Virus record (IMG/VR): IMGVR_UViG_2529292985_000021
Coordinates: 1-20,856 of that record
Direction: 5' to 3' (one strand)
Origin: a virus
Lineage: Duplodnaviria; Heunggongvirae; Uroviricota; Caudoviricetes
Length of the DNA: 20,856 nucleotides
A program made the position numbers. Numbering within the stretch: position 1 is the stretch's first letter; each line of letters begins with the position of its first letter. Positions 7,601 to 10,600 of this stretch are shown here, piece by piece.

Positions 7601-10600
7601 ATTTTCCCAGAGCCCGACAGTTCTTATTAATCGTGACGTTGTTGAGCGTCCCGGAGTTCGCGTTCACGTTACCGCTGATATCGGCATTTTTCGCCGTCAG
7701 CCGTCCGCCAGGTGTCAGGGAAAATGCCGGAGGATTACCGCCGCTGGTAATGGTCGGAGCCGTCAGGCGTTTCAGGAACACGTCGTTCATGAATATCTGA
7801 TCGCCCTGACCAACAAACATCGGCTTTGTGTTGCCATTCGCAGGATTAATCATCGCAATCCTGTCTGCCGCCAGCAGCACCTGACTCTGCATTCCTGCTG
7901 GCGTATTCTCAATACCGGCACCGATACCCGCAATATAAAGGCGTCCGTCCTTCATCTGTTGCAGCTTCACAGCCCACATGCTGTTCAGGTTATTATTTGT
8001 ATCAACCTGAACTTTCTGTATCTGCTGGATTGCAGCACTCTGATTTTCCAGTTTTTTATTGACGGTTTGCGTGATTTCATTGCTGACATTCGTAATGGAC
8101 GTCCTGATTTCAGTCAGGTCCGGCGCAAGCTGACCGTTATCAATCTGCGTCCACAACTCCTTGCCGAGATGCGTTTTATTGATCAACCCTTTATAAAAAC
8201 TCAGATAACCTTCCGCATCATCGCTCGCCCGACCGACGGCCTCCACAAATGCCGATTTGCCAACGGTGTTCACACTGCGAACGTAAAAATAATAATCATG
8301 GCCCGCCTGATATTGATACTGGCGGCTATCCAGTACAGCGCCGTGCCAAGATAGCGGGCGCTGGTTTCAACCTGCCTGATATCCGCAATCCGCTTTTCCG
8401 AAAACCAGAACTCAAACTGCACCGTCGGGTCATATATAGCCAGTTTCGGGACCGCCGTTATCTGAAAATACCCCGGTATCAGTTCAATAGTGACAGGCGC
8501 TGCCGGTGCCGCAATCCGGAACGATACCGACGCCGGATCGCCCTGCTGCCCCCGGGCATTTACCGCCCGGACTGTCAGACTGTAATTCCCCAGCGCCAGC
8601 TGCCTGAAGCGGTATGTGGTTTCCGTCGTCCTGGCTGTGCTGACCAGCCGCTCACTGCCGTCGTCCGCTGCCACGGTCAGGCGAAGCAGGAAGCTCACAC
8701 CCTTCACCACCTTCGGCGTGTCCCATCGCGCCAGCACCTGATATTCCCCGCTGTCTGCGGTGACTTCGGCGGTCAGATGCTGCACCGCTGGCGGCGTGAC
8801 ACCATTCACCGTGCCGCGCCGGTCACCGTCAAAGTGTGCCCCGTTATCCACGATGGCCTCTTTTTCCGGCACATGCTGCACGGCGGTGATGGCATACGTG
8901 CCGTCGTCGTTCTCACGGATACTCACGCAGCGGAACAGGCGCTGGCGCAGCGTCGGCAGCTTCAGCCCCCACACGCTGTATTCGGCAACGCCGTCAGGAA
9001 CACGGCTCACTTTCACCTTCACGCCGTCGGTGACGGACTGGACCTCCACGCTGACCGGATTCCCCTGTCCGTCAACCAGGCTTATCAGCGTGGTGCCGGA
9101 GGATGGCAGCGTGATTTCACGGTCGAGCGTCAGTGTCCGCGTCTGGCTGTTCACCGCCAGCACGCGCCCGCCGATGCTGATACCCGCATAGTCATCATCA
9201 CAGATTTCAATGACATCGCCCGGTACATGGCGAAGCCCTTCTGCACCCACGCTGAAGTCCACGGTCTGCGTTTCCAGCAGCTCCGTTTTAATCAGCCACA
9301 GCCCGGCGCGGTGTGCCTGCCCCCGGCTGGTACAGCCAAAGGCATCCATCTTCGTGACGTTACGACCGTAACGGGCAATGGCCTGCGTATCTTCAACAAG
9401 CTCTGTCGCCGTCTCCCGGCCGTTATCCGGGTCAATCCAGTTCACCTCTACGGCATTATGGCGGTCCTTCAGGGCGCTGAAGCTGTAGCGGAACGGCGCG
9501 CCATCATCCGGCATCACCACATTACTGCGGTTATAGGTCCACACCTTATCCGACGGTCGGTCCTGCACGAACGTCAGCGTCTGCCCGTTCCATACCGGCA
9601 TACAGCGCATCGCCGAGCAGAAATCACTGAGAACATCCCACGCCTTACGCTGTGTGGTCAGGTAAGCGTTACAGGTGATGCGCGGCTCCGTGCCGCCAAA
9701 TCCGTCCGGCACTGACTGGTCGCAGTACTGGCCGATGACATACAGCGCCCATTTGTCCACATCTGCCGCACCAAGACGTTTCCCCATGCCGTAGCGCGGA
9801 TGAGTGAGCATGTCCCACAGACACCAGGCCATGTTGTTGCTGTATGCTGGCTTAAGCGTTCCGTCCCAGATACCGCTGTATTGCCGCGTCTGCGGGTTAT
9901 AGTTCGACGGCACCTGCAGAATGCGCCCGCGAAGATGATAATTGCGACTCACCTGCTGGTTACCGAACTGCTCTGAATCCACCTGCACGCCGACCAGCGC
10001 CGTGTTCGGGTAGCACTGTTTCACATCGATGATTTCGGTGTACGACGACCAGAGCGTTTTGTTCTGCAGCTGGTCTGTGGTGCTGTCCGGTGTCATCCTG
10101 CGCATCCGGATATTAAACGGGCGCGGCGGCAGGTTACCCATCACCACCGAGGCCAGATACTGCGAAGTGGTTTTGCCCTTAATGGTGATGTCTTTTTCCG
10201 TCACCCAGCCACCGTTACGCTGTATCTGAACCAGCAGGCGGACTTCCGACGGATTCCGGTCCCCCTTTGAGGTGTTTTCCACCAGTGCCTGCACACCGAA
10301 GGTCAGGCGCAGACGATCAATGTTTGCCGACGTGATGGTCCGGGTGATCGGCGTGTCGTATTTCACTTCCGTACCCAGCACAGTCTCTGAGCCGGAAGAT
10401 TCAAACCCCTCCGGCGGTGTCTGCTCCTGCTCGCCGGCGCGGAACACCACCGTAACACCGGAAAAGTTTGTCTTCCCCTCGCTGTCCAGGACCGGCGTAC
10501 CGTTCAGCAGCACGCTTTTTAATCCATCCACCGGACCGTCAACCGGCCCTTCGCTGATGGCATCAATCACACTCAGCAACTGCGTGGATTTCAGGTTGTC

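Follow-up and report, generated by a model that had tools for sequence, protein, structure and literature searches.

The lambda-type tip attachment gene J of the prophage DNA analyzed here is, with high probability, a true pseudogene, one that judging by its sequence lost a single C from a CC pair in codon 781 and that lies inside a decayed lambda-like prophage remnant in the genome of Shigella dysenteriae CDC 74-1112. The whole stretch of DNA, which we call the window, is the 20,856-bp contig AERM01000114.1 of the draft genome assembly GCA_000193895.2; a published strain table ties this assembly to S. dysenteriae CDC 74-1112 (PMC6397287), and the protein names in GenBank agree. Within the window, the pseudogene occupies 3479 nt on the minus strand (7167..10645) and is recognized by its homology to annotated gpJ, broken by a single gap. 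The preliminary description had proposed a single-nucleotide deletion that disrupts a lambda-type J, and this is borne out by exactly one gap against four intact J genes that are 98-99% identical; what it had missed is that the tail module has at least four inactivating lesions, in T, I, V, and J.

The deletion site lies at 8301..8308 (minus strand), where the window has AGGCGGGC in gene sense, versus AGGCCGGGC or AAACCGGGC in the relatives. Read in codons, the window runs ATC AAT ATC AGG CGG GCC ATG and the intact relatives at the same site run ATC AAT ATC AGG (or AAA) CCG GGC CAT GAT; one C is gone from the Pro-781 codon CCG, which makes codon 781 CGG and shifts the frame. Alignment programs place the gap at window positions 8304-8306, and the lost C is either of the CC pair. 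From the ATG at 10645, frame 0 encodes 780 native residues followed by 11 aberrant ones and stops at codon 792, a TGA at 8270..8272, leaving an N-terminal ORF of 791 aa (8270..10645, minus strand) that is GenBank EFW50367.1. The last 378 J codons lie in the -1 frame, which stays open between 8366 and 7167, and the out-of-frame remainder (7167..8300, minus strand; codons 783-1159 of the repaired gene) is GenBank EFW50366.1, the gene callers' version of it being a 368-aa ORF that starts at a GTG (7167..8273). Both entries bear the name 'Phage tail fiber protein', EFW50367.1 being listed under Shigella dysenteriae CDC 74-1112. On translation, the insertion of one C restores a single open J frame of 1159 codons, and the J genes of intact relatives measure 3480 nt and 1159 codons; the deletion is a deterministic feature of the sequence, not a statistical one. 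The finer claims of the preliminary description hold as well: its end of the J frame at 8270 was reproduced as the minus-strand TGA given above, translation of the adjacent -1 frame gives the expected J residues, the 8 nt aggcgggc that it had placed between the INI and HDYY codons are found at 8308..8301 (INI codons at 8317..8309, CAT GAT TAT TAT from 8300), and the lambda J segment that it had given matches the lambda J of PDB 8iyk chain J. The mutational mechanism at GGCCGGGCC would most likely have been replication slippage or simple deletion.

A megablast search of 5426 complete E. coli genomes with the J region as query returned about 4000 full-length J matches, the best of which are 98.2-98.6% identical and annotated as intact gpJ. 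Our alignment set comprised three J copies (L001-L003) and a fourth copy within a longer locus (L004), all from enteroinvasive-type E. coli; J is one continuous ORF in each of the four, and the sole gap in the window's J falls at the deletion site. The broken junction itself is no general feature of this J family: a 91-nt junction query against the complete E. coli genomes found a match of at least 99% identity in none of 4183 matching records, all of which carry the extra base or differ otherwise. An exact-pattern scan with a 42-nt junction found no match among species-representative genomes, a result that carries no information in a collection with one genome per species. Relative to the nearest intact copy, there are 30 synonymous and 11 nonsynonymous differences upstream of the shift, and 0 synonymous and 3 nonsynonymous differences downstream of it, the latter being far too few to weigh; this pattern would be compatible with relaxed constraint or a fairly recent loss. 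The differences between the window and L004 are unevenly spread, 34 of the 98 sitting in the J stretch 9000..9500, a cluster more suggestive of a small mosaic or recombination patch than of uniform divergence.

The state of the remaining tail module was established by mapping the tail genes annotated in the intact relative L004 one by one onto the window. In G, H, M, L, K, lom, and the DUF4376 gene the reading frames are open, and their lengths are as expected. The tail assembly gene I (10706..11248, minus strand) carries a nonsense change, CAG to TAG at 10823..10825 (Q142* of 180), and is called by gene callers as a product of 141 aa. Gene T, a tail assembly gene that pairs with G in the -1 frame (16033..16361, minus strand), has lost 1 nt near 16271, where the gene-sense strand reads GAGGGGG instead of GAGTGGGG; this brings a stop at codon 52 of 109, and the G-T fusion produced by the programmed -1 shift would therefore come out truncated as well. 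The G/T frame relation of lambda is kept at 16361..16380 (minus strand), where G ends CCG GAA AAG TCC TGA with T in the -1 frame, and the window reads GGAAAAG where lambda has the G GGA AAG slip site. The gene for the tail tube, V (16815..17548, minus strand), has lost its 5' end: intact prophages match the window only up to 17548, and the Shine-Dalgarno sequence, ATG, and first codons of V have given way to one end of an IS66-family element (~17548). We did not count stf among the lesions; at 442 aa versus 470 aa in the reference it is an open ORF, aligned in two BLAST pieces.

Beyond V, the window turns from phage to insertion sequences. The IS66-family element spans about 17548..20054 and occupies the position expected for U, Z, and the head genes; its HTH_Tnp_1, TnpB_IS66, and DDE_Tnp_IS66 transposase ORFs lie at 17579..19968 (minus strand, Pfam), and its transposase is split into 40 + 467 aa by a nonsense change at 19051 (A in the window, C in the chromosome CP026840.1, where the ORF has 530 aa). 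No U, Z, or head genes were found beyond this element within the 20.9-kb contig; where the relative L004 has them, the contig carries the IS66-family element and an IS1 fragment. Between these two, at ~20020..20364, there is a 114-aa ORF with a weak GyrI-like match, and the IS1 fragment itself forms the contig end (20404..20856), which probably explains why the draft contig stops there. Several essential structural genes have thus been hit independently, by frameshifts in J and T, a nonsense change in I, and the truncation of V, a mark of a defective (cryptic) prophage; with several tail lesions besides the one in J, the prophage was already, or is otherwise, dead. Relative to those in T, I, and V, the J lesion might have come first or last.

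Among the alternative explanations, the one that survives best is a sequencing or assembly error that hides an intact gene, and we consider even this quite improbable. In its favor, the window comes from a draft-genome contig, single-base indels are the commonest assembly error, and the base call rests on two assemblies. The second of these is, however, a complete chromosome of 4.72 Mb (CP026840.1, GCA_002950155.1), which encodes the identical 791-aa truncated J; across 16.4 kb it matches the window at 99.97% identity, and the four substitutions and one indel that separate the two all lie away from the J site. Its flanks also differ, with a second IS66 copy, an ipaH gene that is down to 374 aa and adjoins an IS1 fragment, and other chromosomal neighbors; on the strength of these sequence differences, it appears to have been assembled separately. 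Because two assemblies that differ elsewhere share the J deletion, an assembly error is unlikely, and the site itself is a CC dinucleotide with no long homopolymer. The T deletion and the I nonsense change are likewise common to both assemblies, as the five differences between the two lie elsewhere.

The consequences of the break can be read from the domain organization of the two fragments. In Pfam, the N-terminal ORF contains FNIII-A_GpJ, Phage-tail_3, and Ig_J, plus positions 2-67 of the 105 positions of the Ig_J_second profile, and the C-terminal remainder contains the Phage_Tail_Tip fiber segment and the C-terminal receptor-binding domain Ig_GpJ_C; all six gpJ Pfam families exceed their curated cut-offs, and across both fragments they follow the family order. 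A phmmer comparison of the repaired J with the PDB finds 8iyk_J (E = 0, 2132 bits), with residues 1-836 and 867-1158 aligned. The published order of lambda J is hub, FNIII-1, FNIII-2, alpha-helical shaft, central straight fiber, and receptor-binding domain (PMC11101478), and by the sequence matches the break is placed in FNIII-2, about two-thirds through the second FNIII/Ig domain. A break in FNIII-2 yields a truncated J without the shaft, the fiber, and the LamB-type receptor-binding domain. Such a protein would at best form a fiber-less hub, and a tail tip built with it could presumably neither bind the receptor nor trigger opening. J sits where the gpJ family has it, between K and I on one side and lom and stf on the other, and the single frame of that family is lost, the deletion in codon 781 being followed by the stop at codon 792; as its reading frame is interrupted, the gene is filed as a pseudogene of the gpJ family.

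A functional split of J is still less likely, and we regard it as very improbable indeed. It would take the form of a programmed -1 frameshift or transcriptional slippage, or of two ORFs made as separate subunits through an overlapping GTGTGA stop-start, and several features of the locus speak for it: the downstream frame is -1, the two frames share a 97-nt overlap (8272..8368) where shifting by -1 would yield a near-native protein, a T5 run lies within this overlap, and the GTG of the downstream ORF overlaps the upstream TGA. Against it, a search of the 97-nt overlap found neither an in-frame slippery heptamer of the form X XXY YYZ nor a homopolymer of at least 6 nt, the T5 run being the longest, and there is no Shine-Dalgarno-like sequence ahead of the GTG. 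Nor is the two-frame arrangement conserved: none of the 4183 E. coli records that contain this J segment has it, and the four closest relatives have one ORF. Structurally characterized J proteins are all single chains, and the partners T, I, and V, which any tail requires, are broken too. Programmed recoding of J was rejected on the grounds that only the T5 run was found in the overlap and that the split is not conserved.

It is scarcely credible that the truncated J and the open genes H, M, L, K, and G are retained and expressed for the benefit of the host in the Shigella lineage, in an envelope-associated or exclusion role, or that spontaneous -1 slippage at the T5 run yields trace full-length J, so that the locus would be something other than neutral debris. 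The proposal that the 791-aa hub-only J is kept for a new host function, such as a tailocin-like or exclusion device, is the most improbable of all, for while its N-terminal 780 residues are well conserved (the 30 synonymous versus 11 nonsynonymous differences given above) and the frames of K, L, M, H, and G remain open, the same conservation is expected from a merely recent frameshift, the inactivation of T, I, and V leaves no tube or tip assembly, and CP026840.1 shows ongoing decay (the lom 1-nt deletion and the ipaH shortened beside an IS1 fragment).

At the tail-fiber end of the remnant, adjoining it, lies an intact ipaH type-III effector gene of 608 aa (2570..4396, plus strand), with LRR_TTSS and NEL E3 ligase domains (Pfam); related loci annotate its equivalents as ipaHb, ipaHd, or ipaHe. 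Two different loci are matched across this gene. Within 1650..4396, the ipaH 5' half and its upstream region, with a pin-type invertase remnant next to pgl, match the ipaHb locus of enteroinvasive E. coli (EIEC) strains, and the window from 3614 onward matches the tail-fiber-linked prophages of ipaHd/e; this suggests a chimeric ipaH context, with a junction that may have arisen by recombination between ipaH copies via their conserved NEL-coding half. Upstream of ipaH, about 375 nt from its start, GTACTGTTTTTTTAAAG at 2178..2194 (plus strand) is a candidate MxiE box with 2 mismatches (~0.01 expected by chance) to what we take to be the consensus, GTATCGTTTTTTTANAG. CP026840.1 has an extra 1-nt deletion near the lom 3' end (window 6616), and its ipaH is a 374-aa ORF with NEL only, beside IS1; these changes show that the remnant goes on decaying and being rearranged in a strain-specific way.

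Taken together, our preferred reading of J as a pseudogene within a dead prophage would run as follows. A lambdoid prophage would have brought the ipaH effector to the Shigella/EIEC lineage and then decayed; the J frameshift would be one neutral lesion among several, accrued once phage selection had ended, and selection would now act on the cargo gene only. As no particle could form anyway, the J lesion would have no phenotypic consequence of its own. For annotation, EFW50367.1 and EFW50366.1 are best combined into a single entry marked as a frameshifted J pseudogene, and the locus, predicted from its genes to be non-inducible, should be treated as a prophage remnant in which ipaH is the only evidently maintained gene. 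The J, T, and I lesions held in common could mark a lineage that links CDC 74-1112 with the CP026840.1 strain. The locus also provides one more case in which Shigella keeps its effector cargo while the delivering phage decays; beyond annotation, the J lesion matters little.

Set beside known systems, the window has the gene order of lambda, H-M-L-K-I-J-lom-stf-tfa, and the repaired J is collinear with lambda gpJ (1132 aa; PDB 8iyk, 8xcg-8xck) over residues 1-836 and 867-1158, with the same Pfam series. Unlike lambda gpJ, the J of the window has its frame broken at codon 781, and the repaired protein exceeds it by 27 residues and is more diverged after residue 836 (311.8 bits over ~290 residues, versus 1825 bits over the first 836). 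The programmed -1 frameshift of lambda G/T likewise joins two tail ORFs in a -1 relation, an example of which is found in the window at 16361..16372, whereas at the J split, which arose by deletion, there is no slippery site and no conservation among relatives. Related too are the ipaH lambdoid prophages of EIEC (for example FDAARGOS_943, NZ_CP065615.1, 776-805 kb and 305-315 kb), which share 98.7-99.6% identity with window 3614..17548 wherever the two align, carry the same set of tail genes, arrange tail fiber, DUF4376, and ipaH in the same way, and are also dotted with IS1 and IS4; their J, I, and T are annotated as intact, whereas the window has point lesions in all three, and at V they have IS1 where the window has the IS66-family element. 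Shigella genomes have undergone IS expansion and widespread pseudogenization (PMC8072062), and the decay of cryptic prophages in Shigella and E. coli is a general background (PMC8072062, PMC9046306) that exhibits the same multiple independent lesions, the same IS elements at module boundaries, the same lost head genes, and the same retained cargo (moron) virulence gene. From this the window does not differ in kind, being one specific instance of it, and the split of J, the halves of which are already separate CDSs in GenBank, is routine Shigella prophage decay.
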